64,000 bases of DNA from assembly GCA_965248925.1 (NCBI GenBank), contig CBDFLE010000006.1:3488001-3552000 (forward strand). The letters are read 5' to 3'. The notes below the pieces were generated by a model that was given only the letters and a program-made list of their open reading frames with translations, ran no database searches and was not told the origin of the DNA. Within the stretch, counting starts at the first letter, position 1, and every line of letters starts with the position of its first letter. This document shows positions 8,769 through 25,295 of this stretch, in pieces. Position numbers and translations under genes: made by a program. This stretch comes from Candidatus Multivoradales bacterium. Lineage in GTDB: Bacteria > Acidobacteriota > Thermoanaerobaculia > Multivoradales > J023.

Positions 8769-9019
8769 AGCGGGATGAGTTCTCAGCTGGCCATTTCAGC
8801 GTGATGATTGCCAGCGATCTGGATCACGAGAAGGTTTACGCAGAGATCTACTGTGATGACAAGTTTGTGGCGCTCGTGAGCCAGGAGCATGGCCTTGAGC
8901 ACAAAATGTTAGAGGTGCCAGGGCCTGGGCTTGTGGAAGAACAAATCTCTCGGGAGGTGGATCTCAAGGGTTTTCAGCACGCTCTTGAGCTAGCCGCGAG
9001 AAAGCTGCACGGCGAGTAG
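8765..9019 (+). CDS. Putative immunity protein for tip A
   Basis: 84 aa acidic ORF overlapping the toxin stop codon (ATGA); the position is typical of rhs immunity genes. Confidence 0.75.
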   Translation: MKRDEFSAGHFSVMIASDLDHEKVYAEIYCDDKFVALVSQEHGLEHKMLEVPGPGLVEEQISREVDLKGFQHALELAARKLHGE

Positions 9020-9057
9020 GCCGCGTTGGCCAACCTTTGACAGTAGCTCGCCATCAT

Positions 9058-9084
9058 GAGTGCCCGGTGTCCCACCGGGCACTC
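9058..9084. terminator. Perfect 12-bp hairpin between the convergent immunity and XRE genes
   Basis: GAGTGCCCGGTG-TCC-CACCGGGCACTC; no clear U-tract. Confidence 0.5.
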
Positions 9085-9462
9085 TCACTGGTGGAGCACT
9101 TCTTCGATCTGGTGCTTCTTGATGTAGGCGTCGATAAGGGAGGTGACGACGTGGCGATCATCGTCGCTCATCCGCTCGACCGCTTCGAACTGGCGTAGCA
9201 ACTCCCGATCCCGCAAGGCAGCCCCACGGGCTGCATCCCCATCGAGATCATCCCGCAGTAGAAAATCGATCGAGACGTCGAGAACATCGGCGAGCCTGAC
9301 GGCAGTTTCGGCGTTGGGCATGGCTTGGCCAATCTCATACTTGCCTACATGGCGACCGTGGATGCCGACCCGTTTGCCGAACTCGTCCTGGGACCATCCG
9401 CGCTCTTTGCGCAGCTTGCGGAGCTTCTGGCCGAAGCTGGGGGCGTCTGTAGTCATCTCCAT
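9085..9462 (-). CDS. XRE-family HTH repressor, type 1
   Basis: FGQKLRKLRKERGWSQDEFGKRVGIHGRHVGKYEIG..MPNAET..RLADVLDVSIDFL. Confidence 0.9.
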   Translation of the reverse strand: MEMTTDAPSFGQKLRKLRKERGWSQDEFGKRVGIHGRHVGKYEIGQAMPNAETAVRLADVLDVSIDFLLRDDLDGDAARGAALRDRELLRQFEAVERMSDDDRHVVTSLIDAYIKKHQIEEVLHQ

Positions 9463-9551
9463 CCGTTGCCTCTCGCTATGAATCTCCGCAAATTCTACAG
9501 CGCAAGCACCTCGCCATCAAGGGAAATGGAGTCTCGGGGCAGAGTTCTTAC

Positions 9552-9581
9552 TTGTAAAACCACGTCTATGCGCTATATAAT
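9552..9581 (+). promoter_or_regulatory. Putative sigma70 promoter of the SymE-primase-integrase operon, unit 1
   Basis: TTGTAA-18 bp-TATAAT in the divergent intergenic region. Confidence 0.55.
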
Positions 9582-9667
9582 CGAGTCAATCGATGCGTAT
9601 GGTGCTCGCTATGAAAACGAGCCCATCAGCTACAACAGAAAGACAGAATCTTGCCGGAGGATCTCCA

Positions 9668-9964
9668 ATGACCGAGCACAAGCTAACGATCTCCGCCCTG
9701 TACCGCCCCGGCTGGCACGTCTTGCCCAGATCGGCACAGCTGCCATTGCTGCAAGTGGTCGGCCCATGGCTCCAGGACGCTGGCTTCTACCCCGGTGCGC
9801 GAGTGCGGATCGATGTGGTGGGTGACGGGCGTTTGGTGGTGACGCGGGTGGAAGAGGGCGAGGAGGAGAGGGAAATGCAGCCGGTGGTGTGGGTGCCGGC
9901 GGATCAGATCGGCCGGATTGATGAGGTCTCGGCAAGTCGCCTGGCAGGAGCAGCCTGTGTCTGA
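9668..9964 (+). CDS. SymE-like (AbrB-fold) protein 1, unit 1
   Basis: PLLQVVGPWLQDAGFYPGARVRIDV motif; GGAGG RBS before the ATG at 9668. Confidence 0.7.
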   Translation: MTEHKLTISALYRPGWHVLPRSAQLPLLQVVGPWLQDAGFYPGARVRIDVVGDGRLVVTRVEEGEEEREMQPVVWVPADQIGRIDEVSASRLAGAACV

Positions 9965-10181
9965 GTCGAGAGCTGAGCGGCATCTGACGATCTCTACCCT
10001 GCACGAGCCCCGCGCACCGCACTACATCAACGGTCCGTGCTCGGTGCGGCTTGTGCCGTTTGTGCGGATGCGGGGGGCTTGGCTGGAAGCAGCGGGGTTT
10101 CGCTGTGGGGAGCGGCTGCGGGTGGAGGTCGAGCAGGATCGTTTGGTGCTTACTCCGGTGGGATCGGAGGCGGCACGGTGA
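9957..10181 (+). CDS. SymE-family protein 2, unit 1
   Basis: VPFVRMRGAWLEAAGFRCGERLRVEVEQDRLVLT matches the SymE pattern; GTG start after GGAG, overlapping both neighbours. Confidence 0.75.
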   Translation: MSESRAERHLTISTLHEPRAPHYINGPCSVRLVPFVRMRGAWLEAAGFRCGERLRVEVEQDRLVLTPVGSEAAR

Positions 10182-13100
10182 GCAGGATTCCGGAAGCGGA
10201 AGTGGAGCGACTAAAGCGAGAAGTATCGGTGGAACGCCTGGTCCTGGCCCGCGGTGTAGAGCTGAAACGGCACGGGGCGGACCTGCTGGGGCTGTGTCCG
10301 TTTCACGACGACCACGAGCCGTCGCTGGTGATCTCGCCAAAGAAGAACCTGTGGCACTGCCTGGGCGCCTGCCAGGCGGGTGGCTCGGTGATCGATTGGG
10401 TGATGCGAGATCGCGGGGTGTCGTTTCGCCACGCGGTCGAGCTGCTGCGCTCGGATCTGCCGGCGGCGGCGGTCACTGAGGCGCGGCCTTCGGCGCCGGC
10501 TCTGCCTTCGCCGGTGGTGGCGGACGTCGAGGACGCGGAGTTGCTCGGCCAGGTCGTCGGCTACTACCACGAGGCTTTGAAGGAGGGCCCGGAGGCGCTG
10601 GCTTATCTGGAGAGCAGAGGGCTGAAGCACCCGGAGATGATCGAGCATTTCAGGCTTGGCTTCGCCAACCGGACGCTGGGCTATCGACTGCCATCGAAGC
10701 AGCTGAAGGCGGGTAAGGAGATGCGGGGTCGATTGCAGAAGCTCGGCGTGCTGCGCAAGTCGGGTCATGAGCACTTCAACGGCTCGATCGTCTTTCCGGT
10801 TTTCGATTCAACAGGCCAGGTGGTGGAGATCTACGGGCGCAAGATCACACTAAATCTTCGCAAGGGGACGCCCTTGCATCTCTATCTGCCGGGTCCACAT
10901 CGAGGGATCTTTAATGCGGAAGCTCTGGTGGCCTCGACCGAGATCATCCTCTGCGAGTCGCTGATCGACGCTCTGACTTTCTGGTGTGCGGGTTACCGTA
11001 ACGTCACCAGCGCCTACGGCATCCAGGGTTTCACCGCGGAGATGCTGGCAGCCTTCGGTGGCCACGGAGTCGAGCGGGTGCTGATCGCCTACGACCGTGA
11101 CGATGCCGGCGAGAAGGCCGCCGGGAAGCTGGCCGAGAAGCTGGTGGGTGCCGGGATCGACTGCTACCGAATCCAATTTCCGCGTGGCATGGATGCCAAC
11201 GAGTACGCGCTGAAGGTGACCCCGGCGGCGAAGTCGCTGGGGGTGGTGATCCGCAAAGCACAGTGGCTCGGCAAAGGCAAGCCGCCGGGCGTGAAACCGG
11301 GGTTTGGGCCAACAGCTGGCCTAATCGCGCCAACGGTACGGCCAAACACAGCCGCAGAGGCGGTAATGGCTCCACCAACAGAGCAGCTGACATCATCGAA
11401 TACCGCCGGAGAGGCGGTATTGGCACTGCCCGCCCCGGCCGAAGCCTCCCCACTGCCCGCACCGCCTCCGCCAGATATGCCGGCTGAGGTGCGCGACCAG
11501 GAGGTGGTCTTGTCGCTCGGCGATCGCCGCTACCGCATTCGCGGTCTGCCGAAGAATCTGGCCTACGACGTGCTCAAGGTCAACGTCCTGGCGTCGCGGG
11601 GCGACGCCTTCCACGTCGACACTTTCGATCTCTACGCGGCGCGGCCGCGGGCGGTGTTTCAGCGGGCGGCAGCCGCTGAGCTGGGGGTCGAGGAGCAGGT
11701 GGTCAAGAAGGATCTGGGCAAGGTGCTGCTGAAGCTCGAGGAGCTGCAGGACGAGCAGATCCGCTCAGCACTCGAGCCGCAGTCGACGGCGGTGGAGCTG
11801 TCAGAGGGAGAGAAGGAAGCGGCGCTTGAGCTGCTGCGCTCACCAGATCTCTTGGTGCGCATCCTCGCGGACTTCGAGCGCTGCGGGGTGGTGGGCGAGG
11901 AGGTCAACAAGCTGATGGGCTACCTGGCGTCGACCTCGCGTTTCCTGGAACGGCCGCTGGCGGTGGTGGTGCAGTCCAGCTCAGCGGCCGGTAAGTCGGC
12001 GCTGATGGAGGCGGTGCTGTCGCTGATGCCAGGTGAGCAGCAAGTGAAGTACTCGGCGATGACCGGGCAATCGCTGTTCTACATGGGCGAAACGGATCTG
12101 CAGCACAAGATCCTGGCGATCGTCGAGGAGGAGGGGGCCGAGCGGGCTAGCTACGCCTTGAAGCTGCTTCAGTCGGAGGGCGAGCTGACGATTGCCTCGA
12201 CCGGCAAGGATGCTTCAACGGGCAAGCTGGTGACGCACGAGTACCACGTCGAAGGGCCGGTGATGATCTTCTTGACGACCACGGCAATCGACATCGATGA
12301 AGAGCTTTTGAATCGCTGCTTGGTGCTCTCGGTGGACGAGGCGCGAGAGCAGACGCGGGCGATTCACCGGCTGCAGCGGCAGCGGCGGACGCTGGAGGGG
12401 CTACTCTCGCGCACCCGGCGCGACGGGGTGATGGCGCTGCACCAGAACGCGCAGCGGCTGCTGCGGCCGCTGGCGGTGGTCAATCCCTTTGCTCCGGAAC
12501 TTACCTTTCTCGATACGCAAATCCGCACCCGCCGGGACCACGAGAAGTACCTGACGCTGATCGACGTGATTGCTCTTTTGCATCAATACCAGCGAGAGGT
12601 GAAGCTGGCGGTGGTCGACGGGCGAGAGGTGGAGTACGTCGAAGTGGTGGCCACAGACATCGAGACAGCCAACCGCCTGGCGCACGAAGTCTTGGGGCGC
12701 TCGCTCGATGAGCTGCCGCCGCAGACGCGGCGCCTGCTGGGGCTGATCGACGAGATGGTCAGCGAAGCCTGTGAGGCGCTGGCGATGGATCGGCCGGACT
12801 ACCGTTTCAGCCGGCGGGCGGTGCGCGAGCACACCGGCTGGGGCAATACGCAGCTGAAGCTGCACCTACGCCGTCTTGAGGAGTTTGAGTATCTGCTGGT
12901 GCATCAGGGCGGGCGGGGGCAGAGCTTTGTCTACGAGCTGGTTTACGTGGCCAGCGACGAGCCGGAGCGGCCGCGACTGCCGGGGCTGATCGAGGTCGAA
13001 ACACTCAGGTACGACGAAAAGAAGTCGGGGTCTGAAGCTGAGAAGTCGGGGCCAAGTCGGCCCCAAGTCGGGGGGGTGTCGGGGGGTGGTCGGGGTGCAG

Positions 13101-13243
13101 TTTCCCAAGCAGAATCAACAACTTCGGCCGGAAATCGTGGAGTTTCGGCAAAAAACGCATATAAGGGGGTGCGAGAAAACGGCCCGTCATGTCGTAAATC
13201 TGGGCCTCGTACCGGCGGCTCGGCGGCGGTCGAGGGGGCCTGA
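10178..13243 (+). CDS. CHC2 zinc finger plus Toprim primase fused to a P-loop NTPase/helicase-like domain, unit 1
   Basis: CPFHDD...WHCLGAC zinc finger; CESLIDALT...YDRDDAG Toprim; Pro-rich linker; SSAAGKS Walker A and IVEEEG Walker B-like motif; GTGA overlap with the upstream stop and GGAGG RBS. Confidence 0.88.
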   Translation: MSRIPEAEVERLKREVSVERLVLARGVELKRHGADLLGLCPFHDDHEPSLVISPKKNLWHCLGACQAGGSVIDWVMRDRGVSFRHAVELLRSDLPAAAVTEARPSAPALPSPVVADVEDAELLGQVVGYYHEALKEGPEALAYLESRGLKHPEMIEHFRLGFANRTLGYRLPSKQLKAGKEMRGRLQKLGVLRKSGHEHFNGSIVFPVFDSTGQVVEIYGRKITLNLRKGTPLHLYLPGPHRGIFNAEALVASTEIILCESLIDALTFWCAGYRNVTSAYGIQGFTAEMLAAFGGHGVERVLIAYDRDDAGEKAAGKLAEKLVGAGIDCYRIQFPRGMDANEYALKVTPAAKSLGVVIRKAQWLGKGKPPGVKPGFGPTAGLIAPTVRPNTAAEAVMAPPTEQLTSSNTAGEAVLALPAPAEASPLPAPPPPDMPAEVRDQEVVLSLGDRRYRIRGLPKNLAYDVLKVNVLASRGDAFHVDTFDLYAARPRAVFQRAAAAELGVEEQVVKKDLGKVLLKLEELQDEQIRSALEPQSTAVELSEGEKEAALELLRSPDLLVRILADFERCGVVGEEVNKLMGYLASTSRFLERPLAVVVQSSSAAGKSALMEAVLSLMPGEQQVKYSAMTGQSLFYMGETDLQHKILAIVEEEGAERASYALKLLQSEGELTIASTGKDASTGKLVTHEYHVEGPVMIFLTTTAIDIDEELLNRCLVLSVDEAREQTRAIHRLQRQRRTLEGLLSRTRRDGVMALHQNAQRLLRPLAVVNPFAPELTFLDTQIRTRRDHEKYLTLIDVIALLHQYQREVKLAVVDGREVEYVEVVATDIETANRLAHEVLGRSLDELPPQTRRLLGLIDEMVSEACEALAMDRPDYRFSRRAVREHTGWGNTQLKLHLRRLEEFEYLLVHQGGRGQSFVYELVYVASDEPERPRLPGLIEVETLRYDEKKSGSEAEKSGPSRPQVGGVSGGGRGAVSQAESTTSAGNRGVSAKNAYKGVRENGPSCRKSGPRTGGSAAVEGA
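13022..13095 (+). repeat. Iteron-like GTCGG array inside the 3' end of the primase gene (also near 20890-20963 and 28605-28678)
   Basis: GTCGG at 13024, 13045, 13056, 13067, 13078 and 13089 (11-bp period); first four are AAGTCGG. Confidence 0.6.
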
Positions 13244-14316
13244 TGCCGCGCCGTGGCGAGCGCAAGATCCGCCTCTTGCCGGGCAATCCAACCGACCCTC
13301 GGGGCTTCGCGGTGATGGCGGGTCAGTACCTGGAGTGGATGGCGATCAAGAACTACTCTCCACGAACCGTTGAGAACCGGCATCTATACCTCTCGTTTCT
13401 CATCGCATGGTGTGAAGAGCGTGGGGTGTCGCGGCCGTCGGAAGTGACCAAGCCGATCCTGGAGCGCTACGCCAGGTGGCTCTACCACTACCGCAAGCCT
13501 GGGGACGGGCGGCCGCTGTCTTTCCGGGCTCAGCACTCGCGGCTGGTGCCGGTAAGGGCCTTCTTCAAATGGGCGGCTCGGGCCAACCACCTGCTCTACA
13601 ACCCGGCCTCGGAGCTGGAGCTACCGAAGCTGGAGCACCGGCTGCCGGCGGCGGTGCTGACCGCCTCTGAAGCCGACCAGGTGCTCAACCAGCCCGACAC
13701 CACGGAGCCGCTCGGGATGCGCGACCGAACAATCCTTGAAGTCTTCTACTCCACGGGCATGCGCCGGGCTGAGCTGATCGGCCTCGGCCGTTACGATCTC
13801 GACATCGAGCGCGGGACGGTGATGGTGCGCCAGGGCAAGGGTAGGAAAGATTGGATGATCCCGATCGGCGAGCGGGCGTTGGCCTGGATCGATCGCTACG
13901 TCACTGCGGTACGGCCGTCGCTGGTGGTCGAGCCGGACGGCGGGCCGCTCTTTCTCACCAACCAGGGGACGCCGTTTGCGCCGTCGCGAATGACTCAGCT
14001 GGTGCGCGGCTACGTGCTCGCCGCCGATCTCGGCAAGTCGGGCGCTTGCCATCTCTTCCGCCACACGATGGCGACGCTGATGCTCGAAGGTGGTGCGGAT
14101 ATCCGCTTCATTCAGCAGATGCTCGGCCATGCCAAGCTGGAGACGACGCAGATTTACACTCAGGTATCGATCCGCAAACTGAAGTCGATCCACTCGGCAA
14201 CCCATCCGGGCGCGAAGCTAGGGCGGCGGGTGGCACCGCCGACAGAAGAAGACGGCAGCGATGAAGTGACCGCCGAGGACTTACTCGATGTAGTCGAGAC
14301 CGAGGCGGAGGACTGA
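13243..14316 (+). CDS. Tyrosine recombinase (XerC/XerD-like integrase), unit 1
   Basis: Catalytic set intact: TGMRRAE (R), KGRK (K), HLFRH (H-x-x-R), LGH (H), TQIY (Y); TGATG coupling to the primase gene. Confidence 0.93.
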   Translation: MPRRGERKIRLLPGNPTDPRGFAVMAGQYLEWMAIKNYSPRTVENRHLYLSFLIAWCEERGVSRPSEVTKPILERYARWLYHYRKPGDGRPLSFRAQHSRLVPVRAFFKWAARANHLLYNPASELELPKLEHRLPAAVLTASEADQVLNQPDTTEPLGMRDRTILEVFYSTGMRRAELIGLGRYDLDIERGTVMVRQGKGRKDWMIPIGERALAWIDRYVTAVRPSLVVEPDGGPLFLTNQGTPFAPSRMTQLVRGYVLAADLGKSGACHLFRHTMATLMLEGGADIRFIQQMLGHAKLETTQIYTQVSIRKLKSIHSATHPGAKLGRRVAPPTEEDGSDEVTAEDLLDVVETEAED

Positions 14317-14520
14317 CCCCCGCCCGAAGCGGTCCGGGTCTGCGGGTCCCGCGCTGCGGCCGGCTGCGCCGTCCTCCGTTCGCGGGCCACGCAGCCCTCG
14401 GCAGTATTTTTTCGTCACCCCAGCCCGCCCCGGCCCGAGCATCTGCGATCCACCACCTGAGCCCTCCGATCACCGGCCCGGCGCGGGGCTTCAAGTAGTC
14501 CAAGAGAAGACTCTTCGAAA

Positions 14521-14761
14521 GCTCACCCCAAGCTCCGCCGGGGCGTGTGTCCCTCCGGTCGCTGCGCTCCCTCCGGGCACGGGCCAGCCGCTCCGCAAGC
14601 CGCGCGCCACCTGGGTCCCTCCTCGGACCTCCCAGGTGTCACGCGGCTTGCATGGGTCGCTGTCCGATAGTGCGCGCCCTATCCGACCTGGCCCTCACAC
14701 GCCCCGGCTCCGGGCCTACGGCCTTTCCATAACGCGTGCATTATGGAAACTTGGGGTGAGC
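14521..14761. other. Nested inverted-repeat (branched hairpin) module downstream of the integrase
   Basis: Nested pairs GCTCACCCCAAG/CTTGGGGTGAGC, CCGGGGCGTGTG/CACACGCCCCGG, CAAGCCGCG/CGCGGCTTG, CACCTGGG/CCCAGGTG, TTTCCATAA/TTATGGAAA. Confidence 0.65.
14722..14751 (+). other. cer/dif-like XerCD site, unit 1
   Basis: CCTTTCCATAA-CGCGTGCA-TTATGGAAACT; the right arm matches the ColE1 cer XerD arm TTATGGTAAAT at 9/11; 8-bp spacer as in cer. Confidence 0.55.
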
Positions 14762-15206
14762 ACTCCGCGAGCCTGCGATGGTCAGCGGCTTCGGAACCAC
14801 GCCCCGCTCCGGGCCTCCTTGCCGAGATCCACCAGCCAGCACTGCGACGGCTCGGCCCGGCCCCGTCCGCCCCCTCAAGGGGGCTCCCCATCCTCCTCCC
14901 AAGACCCGCCCTGCGTCGTGGCCTCCGTACCCTGCGCGCGGCGCCCTGCGGTCGCCGTGCTCGGCTCCGGCCCCGCCGCCACCACGCCCCCAACGTGCAG
15001 ATTGGTTTGGCGGCTGCGCCGCCGGCACCAAACTGCCGGAAAGACCCGCGCTCGCTCCGACGACCAGCCCGACGAAAACGACCTAAGAAAACACCCACTG
15101 CCCGAAGAAAGCGGCCTAAGAAAACCGCATCCCGCCTCCGCACCAACCACCCTTCCTCCTTTAGCCGCTGTCTTCGAGCGCCACCCGCGGCGTAGAATGG
15201 CCCGGC

Positions 15207-16283
15207 ATGAGGCAGGCAGCTAAAGGAAGAAGCACTTGGACGATGGCGCTCGGGCTGGTCGTCGCGCTCCTGGCGGTGACGATGCCGGCAACAGCGATCG
15301 CGCCGATCTCCGAGTCGAGCTACGCCGAAACTCGCCTCTGGACCTTCGAGCACCAAGACCCCGCCGGCAGTAGGGCCGAGCGAGGCTTAAGTAGAACAGG
15401 CATAGAGGGTTACCAGCTCTCAAGCTGGAAACCGCGTCGGGCTGTCCCCTTCACCCGAGGGGGTCAGCAGGTGGCGTTGCACAACTACTTTCCCTTTGGT
15501 CAAGAGGCGACCAGCGCGGAGGCTGACGAGATCCAGCTGAAATTCACCGGCCATGAGCGGGACAAGACCGGGACCGGCAGCCGCTCCGAGCTGGACTATA
15601 TGCATGCTCGGCATTGCAGCCCGGTGGTGGGGCGGTTTTTGAGTGTGGATCCATCTCTGGGTAGCCGGTCCTCACCACAGAGTTGGAATCGCTTCTCTTA
15701 CGTCAGCAACAGTCCAATCAACCAGGTAGACCCGGACGGAAGGCTTGGGTTTCTGGTAACTGCATTTCTTGGCGGAGTCGTAGATGTTGGGATTCAAATT
15801 GCGAGCAACGCGCTTTCAGGGGAAGAGCTCACAACAGGCGTAGCCGGGGCTTTCGTCACCGGAGCAGTGGCTGGTGCCACAGGTCTTGGGCTATTGAAGG
15901 TGGCTGGTAGGGGAGCGAAGCTCGTAGGAGCCGTAAGAAATGCAAAGAAACTGAAGAAGTCAGCTGCTGCTGCTGACGCAGCTAGAGCGGGCGCAAAGGG
16001 GGCAGCGGAGGTTTCGCAGAAGGTTGCAAACCAGGCTAACCACATCTTCGGTTCAAAGAACCTCGCAAAACATAGGCTCGGCGGGGTTCTCGACGCCTTC
16101 GGCGGAGACCAGGTCGCGGCGTTACGATCCATAGAGTCAAGTGCACAGAAGCTCGCAGCCAGCGGGGCTATCGAGGGTGTTTTCCGAACAGTGGTGAGGG
16201 TTGGAGAACAATCGGTCATGGTGAGGGGCCGTGTGATTGATGGTGTCGTGAACATCTCCACTGCCTTCATCCCGATCCCATAG
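15207..16283 (+). CDS. Leader::Rhs tip B fusion (signal-peptide-like N-terminus, Rhs core end, pre-toxin linker, putative RNase toxin)
   Basis: About 81 aa leader (MRQAAKGRSTWTMALGLVVALLAVTMPATA...) in frame with TRGGQQVALHNYFPFG...DPDG; C-terminal NHIF...AKH...VRGRVIDG..ISTAF. Confidence 0.8.
   Translation: MRQAAKGRSTWTMALGLVVALLAVTMPATAIAPISESSYAETRLWTFEHQDPAGSRAERGLSRTGIEGYQLSSWKPRRAVPFTRGGQQVALHNYFPFGQEATSAEADEIQLKFTGHERDKTGTGSRSELDYMHARHCSPVVGRFLSVDPSLGSRSSPQSWNRFSYVSNSPINQVDPDGRLGFLVTAFLGGVVDVGIQIASNALSGEELTTGVAGAFVTGAVAGATGLGLLKVAGRGAKLVGAVRNAKKLKKSAAAADAARAGAKGAAEVSQKVANQANHIFGSKNLAKHRLGGVLDAFGGDQVAALRSIESSAQKLAASGAIEGVFRTVVRVGEQSVMVRGRVIDGVVNISTAFIPIP
15441..15468 (+). other. att-like junction between units 1 and 2 (11-6-11)
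   Basis: GCTGTCCCCTT-CACCCG-AGGGGGTCAGC; arms are inverted at 9/11 positions. Confidence 0.75.
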
Positions 16284-16287
16284 GAGT

Positions 16288-16647
16288 ATGCGGATGAGCA
16301 CGGAGAGCCTGGAATCTGCTGTCATCAGCAGAATGTTGGATGACCCTGAACTTTCACCTTGCCTTCGTTCGCTCGACCCCTTGTCACTGGTGATGTCGGA
16401 GCGGAACTTCAGCCAAGTAGGGTTCATCACCAGCTTCGCTCGGACTTCTGGAACAAAGCTGTTCGGTGACGACATCTCCATGCGGTGGGGAAAGGTTATT
16501 GTGCGCATCAATTCCGAGATTGATGTGGACTTCGTCGTCTATGTGGATGACGGATACCTGACCGGAATTGAAGGCTGCACCTTCGGCGGCGAGTTGTGGC
16601 CCTCCGAAATAGAAGCGTTCGAGTTGACTGATCTGCCGGATGGTTGA
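16288..16647 (+). CDS. Putative immunity protein for tip B
   Basis: Acidic 119 aa ORF directly after the toxin stop, AGGAG RBS; start may be the ATG at 16294. Confidence 0.75.
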   Translation: MRMSTESLESAVISRMLDDPELSPCLRSLDPLSLVMSERNFSQVGFITSFARTSGTKLFGDDISMRWGKVIVRINSEIDVDFVVYVDDGYLTGIEGCTFGGELWPSEIEAFELTDLPDG

Positions 16648-16951
16648 TCGTCGTGCCGGCGGAGTGCCAGCGGTCACGCCGCTTCGAATCCAGGAGCACG
16701 ACGGTCACCTTCAAACGTTGGGCCTGTCTTCGATCGGGAAGTTGGAACTCGCGGTAGCGGTGTCGCCGGGAGTCTCGGCCGAGACAGCGCGGCAACTTCT
16801 GCACTCAGCAGCTTCCTACATGGTTTCGGTCAACTACCGGCCCGAGGCGGGGGAAATCCTGTGCTATGAGGGCCAGTGCTACCGGCTGGAGCCGGTGCGG
16901 GGTGGCCTCCTGCTGCTGCGTCCGGTGATTGGCAGTGAGGCCGCCAGCTAA
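16640..16951 (+). CDS. Hypothetical protein, possibly an accessory or orphan immunity-like gene (start uncertain)
   Basis: ORF kept in units 2 and 3 despite local divergence (TPLRIQEH..HLQT.GLSSI...ELAVAVSPGVSA). Confidence 0.4.
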   Translation: MVDRRAGGVPAVTPLRIQEHDGHLQTLGLSSIGKLELAVAVSPGVSAETARQLLHSAASYMVSVNYRPEAGEILCYEGQCYRLEPVRGGLLLLRPVIGSEAAS

Positions 16952-16958
16952 GCCGCGA

Positions 16959-17330
16959 TCAGGGGGCAGCGGTGGCTGATTCCTGGGTGACGAGGTCAAC
17001 GAACTTCTTCTTGGTCAGCAGGCCATCGATGATCTTGATGACGGCAGCCTTTTCCTCGGGGTCGAGGCGTTCGAGCAGCTCCATGCGCTGGGCGAGAGGC
17101 TGATCTTCGAGCCGGACGGGTCGAAACTCTCCCTCTTCTTCATTCAGCAGAAAGTCGGTCGTCACCTCGAACTCTGAGGCGAGCTTGCGCAGCAGGTCAA
17201 TGGACGGCTGGTAGCGGCCGTTCTCAAGCCGGCTGATGTGGCCAGTGCTAACCCCGAGGCGCTTGCCGAGTTCGCCCTGGGCCCACCTGTGCTCAGCGCG
17301 GAGCTTTCGGATCTTCTCTTGAAGGGTCAT
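16959..17330 (-). CDS. XRE-family HTH repressor, type 2
   Basis: MTLQEKIRKLRAEHRWAQGELGKRLGVSTGHISRLENGRYQPS; start placed at the ATG at 17330. Confidence 0.9.
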   Translation of the reverse strand: MTLQEKIRKLRAEHRWAQGELGKRLGVSTGHISRLENGRYQPSIDLLRKLASEFEVTTDFLLNEEEGEFRPVRLEDQPLAQRMELLERLDPEEKAAVIKIIDGLLTKKKFVDLVTQESATAAP

Positions 17331-17428
17331 TGATCGTCGATTTCCTGGCCTCTTGGGCCGAATTTCCACTAATTCTAAGCGCATACGGTGATTTGCGCAA
17401 GTAATTCGGGCGAGAACGTACGCTCTGC

Positions 17429-17457
17429 TTGACGATGATAGGCGCATGCGTTATTAT
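17429..17457 (+). promoter_or_regulatory. sigma70 promoter of the SymE-primase-integrase operon, unit 2 (same sequence at 25186-25214)
   Basis: TTGACG-17 bp-TATTAT; the spacer holds the palindrome CGCATGCG, a candidate XRE operator. Confidence 0.65.
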
Positions 17458-17538
17458 TTGTGCATGAGAGCAGCAAGGTGCCGTGGTCGCAACCGTTAAC
17501 TGCTCCAAGCGTGATGCGAAAACTGGAGGGAAATCTCA

Positions 17539-17835
17539 ATGACCGAGCACAAGCTAACAATCTCCGCCCTGTACCGCCCCGGCTGGCACGTCTTGCCCAG
17601 ATCGGCACGGCTGCCATTGCTGCAGATTGCAGGTCCGTGGCTCCAGGACGCTGGCTTCTACCCTGGTGCGCGAGTGCGGGTCGACGTGGTGGGCGAAGGG
17701 CGCCTGGTGGTGACGCGGGTGGAAGAAGGCGAGGAAGAGAGGGAAATGCAGCCGGTGGTGTGGGTGCCAGCGGATCAGATCGGCCGGATTGATGAGGTCT
17801 CGGCAAGTCGCCTGGCAGGAGCAGCCTGTGTCTGA
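17539..17835 (+). CDS. SymE-like protein 1, unit 2
   Basis: Near-identical to 9668..9964. Confidence 0.7.
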   Translation: MTEHKLTISALYRPGWHVLPRSARLPLLQIAGPWLQDAGFYPGARVRVDVVGEGRLVVTRVEEGEEEREMQPVVWVPADQIGRIDEVSASRLAGAACV

Positions 17836-18052
17836 GTCGAGAGCTGAGCGGCATCTGACGATCTCTACCCTGCACGAGCCCCGCGCACCGCACTACATCA
17901 ACGGTCCGTGCTCGGTGCGGCTTGTGCCGTTTGTGCGGATGCGGGGGGCTTGGCTGGAAGCAGCGGGGTTTCGCTGTGGGGAGCGGCTGCGGGTGGAGGT
18001 CGAGCAGGATCGTTTGGTGCTTACTCCGGTGGGATCGGAGGCGGCACGGTGA
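17828..18052 (+). CDS. SymE-family protein 2, unit 2
   Basis: Identical protein to 9957..10181. Confidence 0.75.
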   Translation: MSESRAERHLTISTLHEPRAPHYINGPCSVRLVPFVRMRGAWLEAAGFRCGERLRVEVEQDRLVLTPVGSEAAR

Positions 18053-21000
18053 GCAGGATTCCGGAAGCGGAAGTGGAGCGACTAAAGCGAGAAGTATCGG
18101 TGGAACGCCTGGTCCTGGCCCGCGGTGTAGAGCTGAAACGGCACGGGGCGGACCTGCTGGGGCTGTGTCCGTTTCACGACGACCACGAGCCGTCGCTGGT
18201 GATCTCGCCAAAGAAGAACCTGTGGCACTGCCTGGGCGCCTGCCAGGCGGGTGGCTCGGTGATCGATTGGGTGATGCGAGATCGCGGGGTGTCGTTTCGC
18301 CACGCGGTCGAGCTGCTGCGCTCGGATCTGCCGGCGGCGGCGGTCACTGAGGCGCGGCCTTCGGCGCCGGCTCTGCCTTCGCCGGTGGTGGCGGACGTCG
18401 AGGACGCGGAGCTACTCGGCCAGGTCGTCGGCTACTACCACGAGGCTTTGAAGGACAGCCCGGAAGCGCTGACGTACCTGGAGAGTCGGGGCTTGAAGCA
18501 CCCGGAGATGATCGAGCATTTCCGGCTTGGCTTCGCCAACCGGACGCTGGGCTATCGTCTGCCATCGAAGCAGCTGAAGGCGGGTAAGGAGATGCGGGGT
18601 CGATTGCAGAAGCTCGGCGTGCTGCGCAAGTCGGGTCATGAGCACTTCAACGGCTCGATCGTCTTTCCGGTCTTCAAGGGTGGCCGGGTGGTGGAGATCT
18701 ACGGGCGCAAGATCACACTGAATCTTCGCAAGGGGACGCCCTTGCATCTCTATCTGCCGGGTCCACATCGAGGGATCTTTAATGCGGAAGCTCTGGTGGC
18801 CTCGACCGAGATCATCCTCTGCGAGTCGCTGATCGACGCTCTGACTTTCTGGTGTGCGGGTTACCGTAACGTCACCAGCGCCTACGGCATCCAGGGTTTC
18901 ACCGCGGAGATGCTGGCAGCCTTCGGTGGCCACGGAGTCGAGCGGGTGCTGATCGCCTACGACCGTGACGATGCCGGCGAGAAGGCCGCCGGGAAGCTGG
19001 CCGAGAAGCTGGTGGGTGCCGGGATCGACTGCTACCGAATCCAATTTCCGCGTGGCATGGATGCCAACGAGTACGCGCTGAAGGTGACCCCGGCGGCGAA
19101 GTCGCTGGGGGTGGTGATCCGCAAAGCACAGTGGCTCGGCAAAGGCAAGCCGCCGGGCGTGAAACCGGGGTTTGGGCCAACAGCTGGCCTAATCGCGCCA
19201 ACGGTACGGCCAAACACAGCCGCAGAGGCGGTAATGGCTCCACCAACAGAGCAGCTGACATCATCGAATACCGCCGGAGAGGCGGTATTGGCACTGCCCG
19301 CCCCGGCCGAAGCCTCCCCACTGCCCGCACCGCCTCCGCCAGATATGCCGGCTGAGGTGCGCGACCAGGAGGTGGTCTTGTCGCTCGGCGATCGCCGCTA
19401 CCGCATTCGCGGTCTGCCGAAGAATCTGGCCTACGACGTGCTCAAGGTCAACGTCCTGGCGTCGCGGGGCGACGCCTTCCACGTCGACACTTTCGATCTC
19501 TACGCGGCGCGGCCGCGGGCGGTGTTTCAGCGGGCGGCAGCCGCTGAGCTGGGGGTCGAGGAGCAGGTGGTCAAGAAGGATCTGGGCAAGGTGCTGCTGA
19601 AGCTCGAGGAGCTGCAGGACGAGCAGATCCGCTCGGCACTCGAGCCGCAGTCGACGGCGGTGGAGCTGTCAGAGGGAGAGAAGGAAGCGGCGCTTGAGCT
19701 GCTGCGCTCACCAGATCTCTTGGTGCGCATCCTCGCGGACTTCGAGCGCTGCGGGGTGGTGGGCGAGGAGGTCAACAAGCTGATGGGCTACCTGGCGTCG
19801 ACCTCGCGTTTCCTGGAACGGCCGCTGGCGGTGGTGGTGCAGTCCAGCTCAGCGGCCGGTAAGTCGGCGCTGATGGAGGCAGTGCTGGCACTGATGCCAG
19901 GTGAGCAGCAAGTGAAGTACTCGGCGATGACCGGGCAATCGCTGTTCTACATGGGCGAAACGGATCTGCAGCACAAGATCCTGGCGATCGTCGAGGAGGA
20001 GGGGGCCGAGCGGGCTAGCTACGCCTTGAAGCTGCTTCAGTCGGAGGGCGAGCTGACGATTGCCTCGACCGGCAAGGATGCTTCAACGGGCAAGCTGGTG
20101 ACGCACGAGTACCACGTCGAAGGGCCGGTGATGATCTTCTTGACGACCACGGCAATCGACATCGATGAAGAGCTTTTGAATCGCTGCTTGGTGCTCTCGG
20201 TGGACGAGGCGCGAGAGCAGACGCGGGCGATTCACCGGCTGCAGCGGCAGCGGCGGACGCTGGAGGGGCTACTCTCGCGCACCCGGCGCGACGGGGTGAT
20301 GGCGCTGCACCAGAACGCGCAGCGGCTGCTGCGGCCGCTGGCGGTGGTCAATCCCTTTGCTCCGGAACTTACCTTTCTCGATACGCAAATCCGCACCCGC
20401 CGGGACCACGAGAAGTACCTGACGCTGATCGACGTGATTGCTCTTTTGCATCAATACCAGCGAGAGGTGAAGCTGGCGGTGGTCGACGGGCGAGAGGTGG
20501 AGTACGTCGAAGTGGTGGCCACAGACATCGAGACAGCCAACCGCCTGGCGCACGAAGTCTTGGGGCGCTCGCTCGATGAGCTGCCGCCGCAGACGCGGCG
20601 CCTGCTGGGGCTGATCGACGAGATGGTCAGCGAAGCCTGTGAGGCGCTGGCGATGGATCGGCCGGACTACCGTTTCAGCCGGCGGGCGGTGCGCGAGCAC
20701 ACCGGCTGGGGCAATACGCAGCTGAAGCTGCACCTACGCCGTCTTGAGGAGTTTGAGTATCTGCTGGTGCATCAGGGCGGGCGGGGGCAGAGCTTTGTCT
20801 ACGAGCTGGTTTACGTGGCCAGCGACGAGCCGGAGCGGCCGCGACTGCCGGGGCTGATCGAGGTCGAAACACTCAGGTACGACGAAAAGAAGTCGGGGTC
20901 TGAAGCTGAGAAGTCGGGGCCAAGTCGGCCCCAAGTCGGGGGGGTGTCGGGGGGTGGTCGGGGTGCAGTTTCCCAAGCAGAATCAACAACTTCGGCCGGA

Positions 21001-21111
21001 AATCGTGGAGTTTCGGCAAAAAACGCATATAAGGGGGAGCGAGAAAACGGCCCGTCATGTCGTAAACCTGGGCGTCGTACCGGCGGCTCGGCGGCGGTCG
21101 AGGGGGCCTGA
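18049..21111 (+). CDS. CHC2/Toprim primase-NTPase, unit 2
   Basis: Same motifs as the unit 1 copy, with a few substitutions. Confidence 0.88.
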   Translation: MSRIPEAEVERLKREVSVERLVLARGVELKRHGADLLGLCPFHDDHEPSLVISPKKNLWHCLGACQAGGSVIDWVMRDRGVSFRHAVELLRSDLPAAAVTEARPSAPALPSPVVADVEDAELLGQVVGYYHEALKDSPEALTYLESRGLKHPEMIEHFRLGFANRTLGYRLPSKQLKAGKEMRGRLQKLGVLRKSGHEHFNGSIVFPVFKGGRVVEIYGRKITLNLRKGTPLHLYLPGPHRGIFNAEALVASTEIILCESLIDALTFWCAGYRNVTSAYGIQGFTAEMLAAFGGHGVERVLIAYDRDDAGEKAAGKLAEKLVGAGIDCYRIQFPRGMDANEYALKVTPAAKSLGVVIRKAQWLGKGKPPGVKPGFGPTAGLIAPTVRPNTAAEAVMAPPTEQLTSSNTAGEAVLALPAPAEASPLPAPPPPDMPAEVRDQEVVLSLGDRRYRIRGLPKNLAYDVLKVNVLASRGDAFHVDTFDLYAARPRAVFQRAAAAELGVEEQVVKKDLGKVLLKLEELQDEQIRSALEPQSTAVELSEGEKEAALELLRSPDLLVRILADFERCGVVGEEVNKLMGYLASTSRFLERPLAVVVQSSSAAGKSALMEAVLALMPGEQQVKYSAMTGQSLFYMGETDLQHKILAIVEEEGAERASYALKLLQSEGELTIASTGKDASTGKLVTHEYHVEGPVMIFLTTTAIDIDEELLNRCLVLSVDEAREQTRAIHRLQRQRRTLEGLLSRTRRDGVMALHQNAQRLLRPLAVVNPFAPELTFLDTQIRTRRDHEKYLTLIDVIALLHQYQREVKLAVVDGREVEYVEVVATDIETANRLAHEVLGRSLDELPPQTRRLLGLIDEMVSEACEALAMDRPDYRFSRRAVREHTGWGNTQLKLHLRRLEEFEYLLVHQGGRGQSFVYELVYVASDEPERPRLPGLIEVETLRYDEKKSGSEAEKSGPSRPQVGGVSGGGRGAVSQAESTTSAGNRGVSAKNAYKGERENGPSCRKPGRRTGGSAAVEGA

Positions 21112-22184
21112 TGCCGCGCCGTGGCGAGCGCAAGATCCGCCTCTTGCCGGGCAATCCAACCGACCCTCGGGGTTTCGCGGTGATGGCCGGCCAGTACCTG
21201 GAGTGGATGGCGATCAAGAACTACTCTCCACGAACCGTTGAGAACCGGCATCTATACCTCTCGTTTCTCATCGCATGGTGTGACGAGCGTGGAGTGTCGC
21301 GGCCGTCGGACGTGACCAAGCCGATTTTGGAACGCTACGCCAGGTGGCTCTACCACTACCGCAAGCCCGAGGATGGGCGGCCGCTGTCTTTCCGGGCTCA
21401 GCACTCGCGGCTGGTGCCGGTAAGGGCCTTCTTCAAATGGGCGGCTCGGGCCAACCACCTGCTCTACAACCCGGCCTCGGAGCTGGAGCTACCGAAGCTG
21501 GAGCACCGGCTGCCGGCGGCGGTGCTGACCGCCTCTGAAGCCGACCAGGTGCTCAACCAGCCCGACACCGCCGACCCGCTCGGGATGCGCGACCGAACAA
21601 TCCTTGAAGTCTTCTACTCCACGGGCATGCGCCGGGCTGAGCTGATCGGCCTCGGCCGTTACGATCTCGACATCGAACGCGGGACGGTGATGGTGCGCCA
21701 GGGCAAGGGTAGGAAAGATTGGATGATCCCGATCGGCGAGCGGGCGCTGGCCTGGATCGATCGCTACGTCACTGAGGTACGGCCGTCGCTGGTGGTCGAG
21801 CCGGACGGCGGGCCGCTCTTTCTCACCAACCAGGGGACGCCGTTTGCGCCGTCGCGAATGACTCAGCTGGTGCGCGGCTACGTGCTCGCCGCCGATCTCG
21901 GCAAGTCGGGCGCTTGCCATCTCTTCCGCCACACGATGGCGACGCTGATGCTCGAAGGTGGTGCGGATATCCGCTTCATCCAGCAGATGCTCGGCCACGC
22001 CAAGCTGGAGACGACGCAGATTTACACTCAGGTATCGATCCGCAAACTGAAGTCGATCCACTCGGCAACCCATCCGGGCGCGAAGCTAGGGCGGCGGGTG
22101 GCACCGCCGACAGAAGAAGACGGCAGCGATGAAGTGACCGCCGAGGACTTACTCGATGTAGTCGAGACCGAGGCGGAGGACTGA
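21111..22184 (+). CDS. Tyrosine recombinase, unit 2
   Basis: R-K-H-R-H-Y residues intact. Confidence 0.93.
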   Translation: MPRRGERKIRLLPGNPTDPRGFAVMAGQYLEWMAIKNYSPRTVENRHLYLSFLIAWCDERGVSRPSDVTKPILERYARWLYHYRKPEDGRPLSFRAQHSRLVPVRAFFKWAARANHLLYNPASELELPKLEHRLPAAVLTASEADQVLNQPDTADPLGMRDRTILEVFYSTGMRRAELIGLGRYDLDIERGTVMVRQGKGRKDWMIPIGERALAWIDRYVTEVRPSLVVEPDGGPLFLTNQGTPFAPSRMTQLVRGYVLAADLGKSGACHLFRHTMATLMLEGGADIRFIQQMLGHAKLETTQIYTQVSIRKLKSIHSATHPGAKLGRRVAPPTEEDGSDEVTAEDLLDVVETEAED

Positions 22185-22478
22185 CCCCCGCCCGAGCATC
22201 TGCGATCCACCACCTGAGCCCTCCGATCACCGGCCCGGAGCGAGGCTTCAGGTAGTCCAAGAAAAGAGTCTCCGAAAGCTCGCCCCACGCTCCGCCGGGG
22301 CGTGTGTCCCTCCGGTCGCTGCGCTCCCTCCGGGCACGGGCCAGCCGCTCCGCAAGCCGCGCGCCACCTGGGCCCCTCCTCGGACCTCCCAGATGTCACG
22401 CGGCTTGCATGGGTCGCTGTCCGATAGTGCGCGCCCTATCCGACCTGGCCCTCACACGCCCCGGCTCCGGGCCTACGG

Positions 22479-22508
22479 CCTTTCCATAACGCGTGCATTA
22501 TGGAAACT
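22479..22508 (+). other. cer/dif-like XerCD site, unit 2
   Basis: Identical to 14722..14751. Confidence 0.55.
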
Positions 22509-22963
22509 TGGGGTGAGCACTCCGCGAGCCTGCGATGGTCAGCGGCTTCGGAACCACGCCCCGCTCCGGGCCTCCTTGCCGAGATCCACCAGCCAGCACT
22601 GCGACGGCTCGGCCCGGCCCCGTCCGCCCCCTCAAGGGGGCTCCCCATCCTCCTCCCAAGACCCGCCCTGCGTCGTGGCCTCCGTACCCTGCGCGCGGCG
22701 CCCTGCGGTCGCCGTGCTCGGCTCCGGCCCCGCCGCCACCACGCCCCCAACGTGCAGATTGGTTTGGCGGCTGCGCCGCCGGCACCAAACTGCCGGAAAG
22801 ACCCGCGCTCGCTCCGACGACCAGCCCAACGAAAACGACCTAAGAAAACACCCACTGCCCGAAGAAAGCGGCCTAAGAAAACCGCATCCCGCCTCCGCAC
22901 CAACCACCCTTCCTCCTTTAGCCGCTGTCTTCGAGCGCCACCCGCGGCGTAGAATGGCCCGGC

Positions 22964-24040
22964 ATGAGGCAGGCAGCTAAAGGAAGAAGCACTTGGACGA
23001 TGGCGCTCGGGCTGGTCGTCGCGCTCCTGGCGGTGACGATGCCGGCAACAGCGATCGCGCCGATCTCCGAGTCGAGCTACGCCGAAACTCGCCTCTGGAC
23101 CTTCGAGCACCAAGACCCCGCCGGCAGTAGGGCCGAGCGAGGCTTAAGTAGAACAGGCATAGAGGGTTACCAGCTCTCAAGCTGGAAACCGCGTCGGGCT
23201 GTCCCCTTCACCCGAGGGGGTCAGCAGGTGGCGTTGCACAACTACTTTCCCTTTGGTCAAGAGGCGACCAGCGCGGAGGCTGACGAGATCCAGCTGAAAT
23301 TCACCGGTCATGAGCGGGACAAGACCGGGACCGGCAGCCGCTCCGAGCTGGACTATATGCATGCTCGGCATTGCAGCCCGGTGGTGGGGCGGTTTTTGAG
23401 TGTGGATCCATCTCTGGGTAGCCGGTCCTCACCACAGAGTTGGAATCGCTTCTCTTACGTCAGCAACAGTCCAATCAACCAGGTAGACCCGGACGGAAGG
23501 CTTGGGTTTCTGGTAACTGCATTTCTTGGCGGAGTCGTAGATGTTGGGATTCAAATTGCGAGCAACGCGCTTTCAGGGGAAGAGCTCACAACAGGCGTAG
23601 CCGGGGCTTTCGTCACCGGAGCAGTGGCTGGTGCCACAGGTCTTGGGCTATTGAAGGTGGCTGGTAGGGGAGCGAAGCTCGTAGGAGCCGTAAGAAATGC
23701 AAAGAAACTGAAGAAGTCAGCTGCTGCTGCTGACGCAGCTAGAGCGGGTGCAAAGGGGGCAGCGGAGGTTTCGCAGAAGGTTGCAAACCAGGCTAACCAC
23801 ATCTTCGGTTCAAAGAACCTCGCAAAACATAGGCTCGGCGGGGTTCTCGACGCCTTCGGCGGAGACCAGGTCGCGGCGTTACGATCCATAGAGTCAAGTG
23901 CACAGAAGCTCGCAGCCAGCGGGGCTATCGAGGGTGTTTTCCGAGCGGTTGTAAGGGTAGGGGAACACTCCGTCACGGTTAAAGGACGTGTGATTGATGG
24001 TGTAGTCAACGTCGGCTCTGCCTTCATCCCGATTCGATAG
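22964..24040 (+). CDS. Leader::Rhs tip B' fusion (allelic variant of tip B)
   Basis: Identical protein to 15207..16283 until the last ~31 aa. Confidence 0.8.
   Translation: MRQAAKGRSTWTMALGLVVALLAVTMPATAIAPISESSYAETRLWTFEHQDPAGSRAERGLSRTGIEGYQLSSWKPRRAVPFTRGGQQVALHNYFPFGQEATSAEADEIQLKFTGHERDKTGTGSRSELDYMHARHCSPVVGRFLSVDPSLGSRSSPQSWNRFSYVSNSPINQVDPDGRLGFLVTAFLGGVVDVGIQIASNALSGEELTTGVAGAFVTGAVAGATGLGLLKVAGRGAKLVGAVRNAKKLKKSAAAADAARAGAKGAAEVSQKVANQANHIFGSKNLAKHRLGGVLDAFGGDQVAALRSIESSAQKLAASGAIEGVFRAVVRVGEHSVTVKGRVIDGVVNVGSAFIPIR
23198..23225 (+). other. att-like junction between units 2 and 3 (11-6-11)
   Basis: GCTGTCCCCTT-CACCCG-AGGGGGTCAGC. Confidence 0.75.
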
Positions 24041-24050
24041 GAGTATACGG

Positions 24051-24404
24051 ATGAGTACGGAGATCCTGGAATCTGCTGTCATCGGCAGCATGTTGGACGA
24101 CTCAGAACTTTCACCTGGCCTTCGTTCGTTCGATCCGTTGGCACTCGTTGAAACAGAGCGGAACTTCAGCCAAGTAGGATTCATCACCAGCTTCGCTCGG
24201 ACTTCTGGAACAAAGCTGTTTGGCGATAACATCTCCATGCGGTGGGGGAAAGTTAGTGGACGCCTCAACTCCGAGATCGATGTGGGCTTCATCGTCTATG
24301 TGGATGACGGATACCTGACCGGAGTCGAGGGCTTCACCTATGGCGGGGAGCTGTGGCCCTCCGAGGTAAGAGCGTTCGAGTTGACGGATCTGCCGGACGG
24401 TTGA
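24051..24404 (+). CDS. Putative immunity protein for tip B'
   Basis: Clear homologue of 16288..16647 with many substitutions; AGGAG RBS. Confidence 0.75.
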   Translation: MSTEILESAVIGSMLDDSELSPGLRSFDPLALVETERNFSQVGFITSFARTSGTKLFGDNISMRWGKVSGRLNSEIDVGFIVYVDDGYLTGVEGFTYGGELWPSEVRAFELTDLPDG

Positions 24405-24426
24405 TTGTCGTGCCGTCGGGGTGTGA

Positions 24427-24708
24427 GTGGTGACACCGCTTCGAATCCAGGAGCACGGCGCTCACCTTCAAACGTCCGGCCTCTCATCAATCCGGAAGTC
24501 AGAACTCGCGGTAGCGGTGTCGCCGGGGGTTTCGGCTGTGGTAGCGTGGCGGCTTCTGCACTCAGCAGCTTCCTACATGGTTTCGGTCAACTACCGGCCC
24601 GAGGCGGGGGAAATCCTGTGCTATGAGGGCCAGTGCTACCGGCTGGAGCCGGTGCGGGGTGGCCTCCTGCTGCTGCGTCCGGTGATTGGCAGTGAGGCCG
24701 CCAGCTAA
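24427..24708 (+). CDS. Hypothetical protein (homologue of 16640..16951)
   Basis: Conserved frame; identical C-terminal half. Confidence 0.4.
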   Translation: MVTPLRIQEHGAHLQTSGLSSIRKSELAVAVSPGVSAVVAWRLLHSAASYMVSVNYRPEAGEILCYEGQCYRLEPVRGGLLLLRPVIGSEAAS

Positions 24709-24715
24709 GCCGCGA

Positions 24716-25087: not shown

Positions 25088-25295
25088 TGATCGTCGATTT
25101 CCTGGCCTCTTGGGCCGAATTTCCACTAATTCTAAGCGCATACGGTGATTTGCGCAAGTAATTCGGGCGAGAACGTACGCTCTGCTTGACGATGATAGGC
25201 GCATGCGTTATTATTTGTGCATGAGAGCAGCAAGGTGCCGTGGTCGCAACCGTTAACTGCTCCAAGCGTGATGCGAAAACTGGAGGGAAATCTCA

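Follow-up and report, generated by a model that had tools for sequence, protein, structure and literature searches.

Known systems and the present locus

Exchange of toxin tips in Rhs proteins and other polymorphic toxins is commonly explained by the standing model of PMC2935791 (Jackson et al. 2009), in which the C-terminal end of a gene is displaced via homologous recombination with hypothetical circles. According to that article, no integrase is known to accompany Rhs, and the origin of the circles is left open. Here we analyze a 64,000-nucleotide stretch of Candidatus Multivoradales bacterium (contig CBDFLE010000006.1, positions 3,488,001 to 3,552,000; hereafter the window), in which four copies of a short site delimit three tandem elements of approximately 7.6 kb each within one rhs gene. 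Based on the architecture of this locus, the in-frame fusions at its boundaries, the mapped exchange interval, recombinase genes that are intact, and the conservation and arm covariation seen in relatives, the 28-bp sequence (28-mer) at these boundaries probably serves a family of integrative elements as core recombination site. The locus resembles Rhs displacement as described in PMC2935791 in that a new tip with a piece of the core displaces the resident one, the old tip and its neighbour are kept downstream, orphan arrays are formed and a circle is postulated; it differs in that every displaced tip begins at the same base, after a recombinase gene and a non-rhs leader. In this locus the tip is carried by an element with its own recombinase, replication protein and regulator, and the attachment site is placed so that both products stay open reading frames.

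Elements that use dif-type sites include the CTX phage and the gonococcal genetic island. The 28-mer shares with XerC/XerD-dif the two arms of about 11 bp and the 6-bp centre, as well as a XerC/D-type recombinase without an arm-binding domain. The original prediction described the site as dif-like, and this holds for its geometry and recombinase family only: it is a multi-copy element site, its 12 full copies in the source genome all lie in mobile units, in contrast to what would be expected of a chromosomal dimer-resolution dif, and no resemblance to the dif sequences quoted in PMC10210955 is apparent by eye (the host dif was not sought). The same article describes dif-type sites near vgrG clusters in Neisseria. 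Unlike in XerC/XerD-dif systems, the recombinase is encoded by the element, the site is present in several copies within a coding frame, and the target contributes one good arm.

Prophages that insert into icd, such as phage 21 and e14, bring with them a substitute 3' end that keeps the target gene open; in those cases the encoded protein is the same as before, whereas the substitute here provides a toxin domain that differs from the old one. In shufflons and hsdS-type switches (Rci and Xer-like recombinases), sites also lie inside a reading frame and C-terminal segments are exchanged by inversion between inverted sites, but the window has direct repeats as sites, and its segments are brought in by mobile elements. 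P4-like satellites, phage-inducible chromosomal islands (PICI) and tycheposons are small elements with an integrase and a primase-helicase. The elements described here are similar to them in size (7-10 kb), in encoding a cI-like regulator, a primase-helicase and a tyrosine recombinase, and in forming tandem arrays; in contrast, no packaging or capsid genes were identified among the element genes, and a toxin gene takes the place of a tRNA gene as the target.

Tyrosine recombinases are also found beside arrays of toxin or immunity cassettes, as in integrons. In published accounts, XerC/D genes adjoin polyimmunity loci (PMC3482391), recombinase-associated immunity arrays (rAID) are described (PMC12247911), and Xer-dependent systems adjoin poly-immunities (a 2026 preprint). 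One relative of the present elements, from Janthinobacterium, looks integron-like, with cassettes of about 1 kb that each open with the same in-frame 10-mer. The units in the window differ from integrons and rAID in being whole elements with replication and regulatory genes, and in having a site that fuses cargo in frame to a delivery protein. Full-text literature searches, with supplements outside their range, returned no papers on integrase-bearing elements that insert into rhs.

The putative core site and the tandem elements

Coordinates are window positions on the + strand unless indicated otherwise. A search of the window located the exact 28-mer GCTGTCCCCTT-CACCCG-AGGGGGTCAGC (that is, GCTGTCCCCTTCACCCGAGGGGGTCAGC) at 15441-15468 (junction 1, an attP-type core) and at 23198-23225 (junction 2, identical to it), and a variant with two mismatches at 30811-30838 (attR). 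These three matches compare with 0.00 expected from 100 shuffles. The attR site has the element left arm and the hexamer, with AGGCGGACAGC as its right arm, and is followed by the last tip. The hexamer and right arm AGGGGGTCAGC occur once more at 7910-7926, where they are preceded by the host sequence CCCCGGCAGAT to give attL (7899-7926). The element left arm pairs with either right-arm variant at 9/11 positions, and the host left arm at 7899 pairs at 3/11.

All four sites lie inside open reading frames (ORFs). Across the first, the rhs ORF (4401-8768) reads ...DHLGTPRQI followed by TRGGQQ; across the other three, the ORFs at 15207-16283, 22964-24040 and 30577-31638 (353-358 aa) read ...KPRRAVPF followed by TRGGQQ. 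The original prediction had named the three copies of the 28-mer, the replacement of the left arm by host sequence at 7899, the 9/11 match of both right-arm variants to the left arm, the coding of RGGQ by both variants and the preservation of the frame on both sides; the search, the pairing counts and the translations agree with it on each of these, and both hybrid products stay open.

Measured from hexamer to hexamer, and consistent with repeat spacing and gene content, element 1 occupies 7910-15451 (7542 bp), element 2 occupies 15452-23208 (7757 bp) and element 3 occupies 23209-30821 (7613 bp). Each is a unit bounded by short-core direct repeats with an integrase gene inside it, which is the organization of an integrative element. 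The inverted arms of about 11 bp around a 6-8 bp centre that characterize Xer-type core sites are present both in the window (9/11 pairs) and in a related genome of the same family as the source, G016 (11/11).

Position of the exchange

The assembly of the source genome (G000, 7.98 Mb; its contigs are designated C4, C5 and C6) contains eight rhs paralogues with cores that are 96-98% identical. Besides the three in the window, it contains nine more elements of the window subfamily (12 in total), of which seven stand in tandem on C5 and the others are single copies on C4 and at C6:1.34 Mb. The site copies with an element left arm (with at most two changes) also number 12, all within mobile units, and in each array every site is on the rhs coding strand as a direct repeat, in contrast to the inverted orientation found in shufflons.

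All 12 element-left junctions read GCTGTCCCCTT CACCCG AGG, then GGN GGW CAGC, with variation of the right arm restricted to glycine wobble positions. The rhs paralogues, whether occupied or not, vary at all wobble positions of ACN CGN GGN GGW, whereas the junctions keep CACCCG AGG. Approximately 420 nt upstream of the site and nt 1-20 of the site itself are invariant among the 12 left junctions; differences begin at nt 21 and then amount to 6-22% per 20-nt bin. At attL, host and element sequences differ through nt 10 of the site and are common from nt 11. Given this switch from invariant to polymorphic sequence and the host/element boundary at nt 11, the joint therefore lies within TCACCCGAGG, and its two flanks have different histories. 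The exchange interval spans nt 11-20 in the window (about 10 bp, including the hexamer) and nt 12-22 in G016. At all 12 junctions the rhs part begins at one base, behind a non-rhs leader. Crossovers scattered over the rhs homology of about 200 bp are unlikely because there is one sharp boundary in all 12 copies.

The invariant stretch of 420 nt before the site (window approximately 15020-15460) comprises the leader and the end of orf195. It is essentially identical in the 12 elements, and the remaining backbone differs by up to about 14% among the copies. This invariance could reflect a long attP arm or conversion. Most of the stretch is contained in four sequencing runs of one sample, with no RNA run listed. 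Contigs assembled from these runs, compared with 7000-26999, yielded short pieces only and no joints. The pieces that cover the invariant element end stop at 15460, its last invariant base; this stop reflects the same polymorphism among copies and is not independent of it.

The element recombinase

The element recombinase (357 aa; 13243-14316, with copies at 21111-22184 and 28826-29902) scores 427.7 bits against the XerC subfamily model NF002331 of NCBIfam (cutoff 371). Its best solved structure is E. coli XerD (1a0p, E-value: 2.8e-39), and the motif stretches that bear the XerD catalytic residues are conserved. As the alignment with 1a0p begins at residue 32, the protein has no extra arm-binding domain. 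The integron-integrase model TIGR02249 gives 100.9 bits, well under its cutoff of 265, which does not fit an IntI-type enzyme. These comparisons support a XerC/D-like classification of the predicted protein. The gene is stop-free in all 14 element copies of the source genome and is situated approximately 1.1 kb upstream of the site in each unit.

Related elements and covariation of the arms

In G016, a 3750-codon frame has four tandem elements near its end; their recombinases are about 81% identical to those of the window. Its junction, GCTGTTCCCCT-GTCCCA-AGGGGAACAGC, is an 11/11 palindrome. The G016 attL, the junctions between two element types and the attR have three unrelated right flanks and share only GTCCCAAGGGG (11 bp); because the common stretch is this short, homologous recombination cannot explain these sites.

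Two more subfamilies in the source genome target other YD-repeat genes. Where the left arm is GCTATCCCCTT, identity to the target starts at the hexamer itself; where it is GGTGTCCACTT, identity starts 2 nt before the hexamer, and the right arm pairs at 3/11. L-numbers denote the other contigs compared. The metagenome contig L043, which includes an attL and a junction, has arms GTCCCGTTGTA and AACAACGGGAA (9/11), again with identity that starts at the hexamer. In several other contigs the site falls on the Rhs motif T-G-K-E-R-D, with hexamer CCGGCA and left arms that mirror the target at 5-9/11 positions.

The original prediction suggested a test of arm covariation across homologous elements. 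Among 13 subfamily junctions, left arms pair with their own right arms at a mean of 7.15/11 positions, compared with 4.55 when arms are combined across sites, and 1 of 20000 permutations reached the observed sum, a figure that overstates the support because several sites were found by their palindromy and the relatives are not independent. Compensatory double changes (C-G to T-A, for example) occur at several arm pairs. Two of the 13 types (G000 C6b and L092) pair at the chance level of 3/11.

The 11-6-11 geometry could not be generalized to all subfamilies. An anchor scan of 80 recombinase genes, in which CGTC[AG]G served as the downstream anchor and the 28 nt after it were scored, gave many near-chance sites (1-6/11); these scores are low in part because the anchor also matches an unrelated leader motif. 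Palindromes of at least 9/11 are weakly enriched within 1.6 kb past the recombinase gene (0.72 per kb, compared with 0.47 per kb elsewhere). More distant subfamilies carry other palindromes, with CTTTAGC-type arms. In L039, sites of about 45 nt with inverted arms of this type (3693, 4360 and 12194) lie upstream of the leader start codon, and two of them enclose a mini-cassette of 667 nt. No interpretable site was found in G011, G013 and G033, whose recombinases are 50-56% identical.

Proposed mechanism of integration

We propose that an excised circular element is integrated in the manner of Campbell by its own Xer-like recombinase. The attP site of the circle would consist of the invariant element end, GCTGTCCCCTT, the overlap CACCCG and AGGGGGTCAGC, followed by the cargo: the end of the Rhs core with its DPxG motif, a toxin tip and small ORFs. 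The recombinase would pair attP with the same two parts, hexamer and right arm, of an rhs gene, which code there for T-R-G-G-Q (the right half of the core is ordinary rhs coding sequence), and would exchange strands within TCACCCGAGG. We infer that the recombinase binds and cuts at this site, with particular cleavage points and overlap length, that a circular intermediate is formed and that the system is active at present. At attL, the Rhs shell would be joined in frame to the incoming tip, which would become the expressed one; at attR, the old tip would be placed in frame with a short element leader and retained downstream with its neighbouring ORF. Repeated insertion would lead to tandem arrays.

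Most simply, the last tip in the window is the displaced resident tip. It had originally been predicted to be element-derived on account of its symmetric right arm, and this is not upheld: AGGCGGACAGC is also found behind a host-type flank in the unoccupied rhs paralogue at C6:1743519 (host left arm, CACCCG, AGGCGGACAGC; a paralogue and not a strain-level empty site) and at the orphan tip C6:2449105. A symmetric right arm is no proof of element origin because AGGCGGACAGC is ordinary rhs coding sequence for RGGQ.

If this mechanism is correct, it would explain tandem arrays of silent tips, and in-frame insertion at the site would explain diversification of the toxin gene. It also suggests that mobile elements use the delivery shell of the host to deploy a toxin of their own, and it can be tested with a 28-bp substrate and one protein. 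We lean, by a small measure, towards a broader proposal: that small self-replicating elements in more than one phylum, with a Xer-like recombinase and core sites in conserved coding motifs of polymorphic toxins (T-R-G-G-Q and T-G-K-E-R-D of Rhs core ends), join new toxin-immunity cargo in frame to a delivery shell that is already resident. Such elements would constitute the long-sought enzymatic route for Rhs C-terminal displacement, apparently reduced in some lineages to an integron-like array of in-frame toxin cassettes.

Alternative explanations

The units might instead have been inserted and multiplied by RecA-type homologous recombination in the conserved end of the rhs core, that is, by C-terminal displacement, with the palindrome incidental to the process. 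Integration of circles by homologous recombination is the published proposal (PMC2935791), and several features of these loci weigh against site-specific integration in its favour. RecA-dependent events are possible because 202 nt to the right of the site have 88-94% rhs identity. One of the four attL sites in the source genome (C6:1342641) reads CACGCG CGGTGGTCAGCaag, with cargo-type sequence only afterwards, and its attR is a complete attP-type site; this arrangement is better explained by conversion between paralogues at a later time, or by a crossover beyond the right end of the site, than by exchange at the hexamer, and homologous recombination thus also acts on these loci. Element-free arrays of orphan tips with host-type left flanks occur in the same genome (C6:2444203-2456674), and it is there that the core fragments vary in length, as homologous displacement predicts; such variation is absent from the window and from the 12 junctions. 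Set against these points, 12/12 junctions turn polymorphic at the same base, which scattered crossovers would blur, and the G016 sites share too little sequence, as noted above. Homologous recombination also leaves unexplained the conserved left arm that mirrors the target, its covariation, and the presence of an intact recombinase in every unit. We consider it an unlikely origin for the arrays. Crossovers elsewhere within the rhs homology had been named at the outset as an outcome that would count against the prediction; C6:1342641 fits such an event, while the single switch point of the 12 junctions does not. The claim that the 28-mer is the crossover site of the element integrase is supported by comparison, through the confined exchange interval, the XerC/D-like recombinase and the recurrence of the geometry with changed arms, with the attL at C6:1342641 as the misfit.

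Other observations also tell against integration by the element recombinase at a two-armed site. Host left arms pair at 2-3/11 in four of the five attL sites scored (7/11 in L043), and the target would accordingly have one good half-site only in most cases. The window contains 34 palindromes of the 11-6-11 form with at least 9/11 pairs, whereas 20 shuffles gave 8-21 of them (mean 14), and repeated element copies account for 9 of the 34; the site exceeds chance because of its exact repetition and its position at the element/rhs boundary, not because of palindromy alone. No circle, empty site, binding or cleavage was seen directly. The site could also be acted upon by the chromosomal XerC and XerD of the host, as for dif-exploiting elements, with the element recombinase employed otherwise. 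Its geometry is Xer-like, more distant Xer-like genes are present in the genome (for example, a 36%-identical match at C6:2252471), and dif-type sites lie near type VI secretion system effector clusters in Neisseria subflava (PMC10210955). An intact Xer-like recombinase is nevertheless encoded in each unit about 1.1 kb upstream of the site, the arms change together with divergence of the recombinase among subfamilies, and, by eye, the site is unlike the dif sequences quoted in that article; use of the host enzymes is thus very improbable in our estimation. We give equally little weight to a hairpin of RNA or single-stranded DNA (an attenuator, a replication signal or a folded recombination substrate) in place of a duplex two-arm site. 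As single-stranded DNA the 28-mer folds with -7.8 kcal/mol (z -3.1), and together with a palindrome upstream of it forms two adjacent hairpins (-18.1 kcal/mol, z -3.2). However, a hairpin leaves the location of the host/element exchange within the palindrome unexplained, attL has no hairpin (-3.3 kcal/mol, z 0.06) yet still stands at the element boundary, and the element has a primase-helicase, with no rolling-circle replication gene identified in scans of the Pfam/PHROGs type.

Gene content of the elements

From the hexamer onward, each unit consists of an Rhs core end with its tip, one or two small ORFs, a divergent helix-turn-helix (HTH) regulator, a primase-helicase, the recombinase, orf195 and the leader. 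The rhs gene at 4401-8768 encodes 1455 aa with Pfam RHS_repeat matches and the Rhs core domain TIGR03696 at residues 1182-1267; its core reaches 7909, and the core end and toxin tip A from 7910 onward belong to element 1. The cargo begins with the last 65 or so codons of the Rhs core (TIGR03696), including the DPxG self-cleavage motif, and continues with the variable tip. An 84-aa ORF after tip A (8765-9019) and a 120-aa ORF after the last tip (31638-32000) are candidate immunity genes by position. No family in Pfam, NCBIfam or PHROGs matched the tips, the small downstream ORFs, orf195 or the leader, and the labels toxin and immunity are for this reason based on position.

The HTH_3 (cI-like) regulator of element 1 is encoded on the - strand (9085-9462; copies at 16959-17447 and 24716-25204). 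It is followed by the gene for a primase-helicase-like protein of 1068 aa (10037-13243; copies at 17908-21111 and 25665-28826), which has a DnaG-type zinc ribbon, a DnaG primase core, a Toprim domain and a C-terminal GKS P-loop. The element-conserved orf195 (195 aa) lies at 14636-15223, with a copy at 22393-22980 and a third at approximately 30098-30590; the third matches in two pieces and may be frameshifted.

The leader-tip ORF (15207-16283, 358 aa; equivalents at 22964-24040 and 30577-31638) joins a 78-aa leader, similar to a signal peptide, through the site to the Rhs core end (TIGR03696 at residues 94-178) and tip B. Displaced tips may be expressed via this leader as small proteins of their own. 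The leader (15207-15440) contains the motif A-E-T-R-L-W-x-F-E, which recurs in the leaders of the distant elements of G016, L037 and L039. A middle segment (15587-15886, 23344-23643 and 30957-31256) is shared at 99-100% identity by tip B, tip C and the last tip, which diverge near the site (88%) and over the last 100 or so codons. This mosaic points to additional exchange inside the tips.

A second 11-6-11 palindrome, GGGTTACCAGC-TCTCAA-GCTGGAAACCG (15407-15434; copies at 23164-23191 and 30777-30804; 9/11 pairs), is located 34 nt upstream of the core and may be an accessory binding site. By eye, GGGTT...AAACC inverted repeats in G016, the C4 subfamily and L043 resemble it.

Elsewhere in the source genome, seven tandem elements follow one rhs gene at C5:921900-988200. 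Two of these units measure 9.3 and 12.2 kb, and one primase gene is interrupted by about 2.9 kb of other DNA (977235-980139). The region C6:2440681-2457000 contains an rhs gene and, behind it, six orphan fragments of core end and tip; their left flanks are host-type and no element is present, which makes this a case of classic displacement without a recombinase within the same genome.

Distribution

The element backbone is common: a profile search with the primase-helicase found relatives on at least 574 metagenome contigs, 80 of which were kept for analysis. The recombinase gene comes next after the primase-helicase in nearly all contigs that are long enough, and 29 of the 80 also have a same-strand Rhs core end. 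Many contigs have tandem or terminal repeats with a period of 6-11 kb, and two of the 80 have terminal overlaps (127 and 77 nt) that are compatible with a circle or a tandem array. The exact left-end DNA pattern was absent from the metagenome contigs and was found as five stretches on two contigs of public genomes. No phage record covered 80% or more of the primase-helicase. Plasmid relatives with 55-62% identity were identified in Ralstonia, Janthinobacterium, Caballeronia and Paraburkholderia.

In the Ralstonia solanacearum Po82 megaplasmid (L113), a primase-recombinase unit of about 10 kb lies between 1.08-kb direct repeats (4676-5884 and 14709-15842) that are fragments of a YD-repeat gene and 95% identical; no 11-6-11 layout was found at the Ralstonia homology boundary. 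The Janthinobacterium lividum plasmid (L114) encodes a 2290-aa repeat protein followed by an HTH regulator, a Toprim protein, an annotated xerC and further ORFs, one of them for an Imm26 immunity protein. Five copies of the 10-mer TCGGCAAACA lie on a single strand of L114 (6409, 13599, 14559, 15616 and 16547; 0.04 expected), always in the frame S-A-N. One copy is in the large gene, and the other four lie past the xerC-like gene at steps of about 1 kb, each opening a new frame. With the annotated Imm26 gene in one of these intervals, the predicted layout of L114 looks like an integron-like array.

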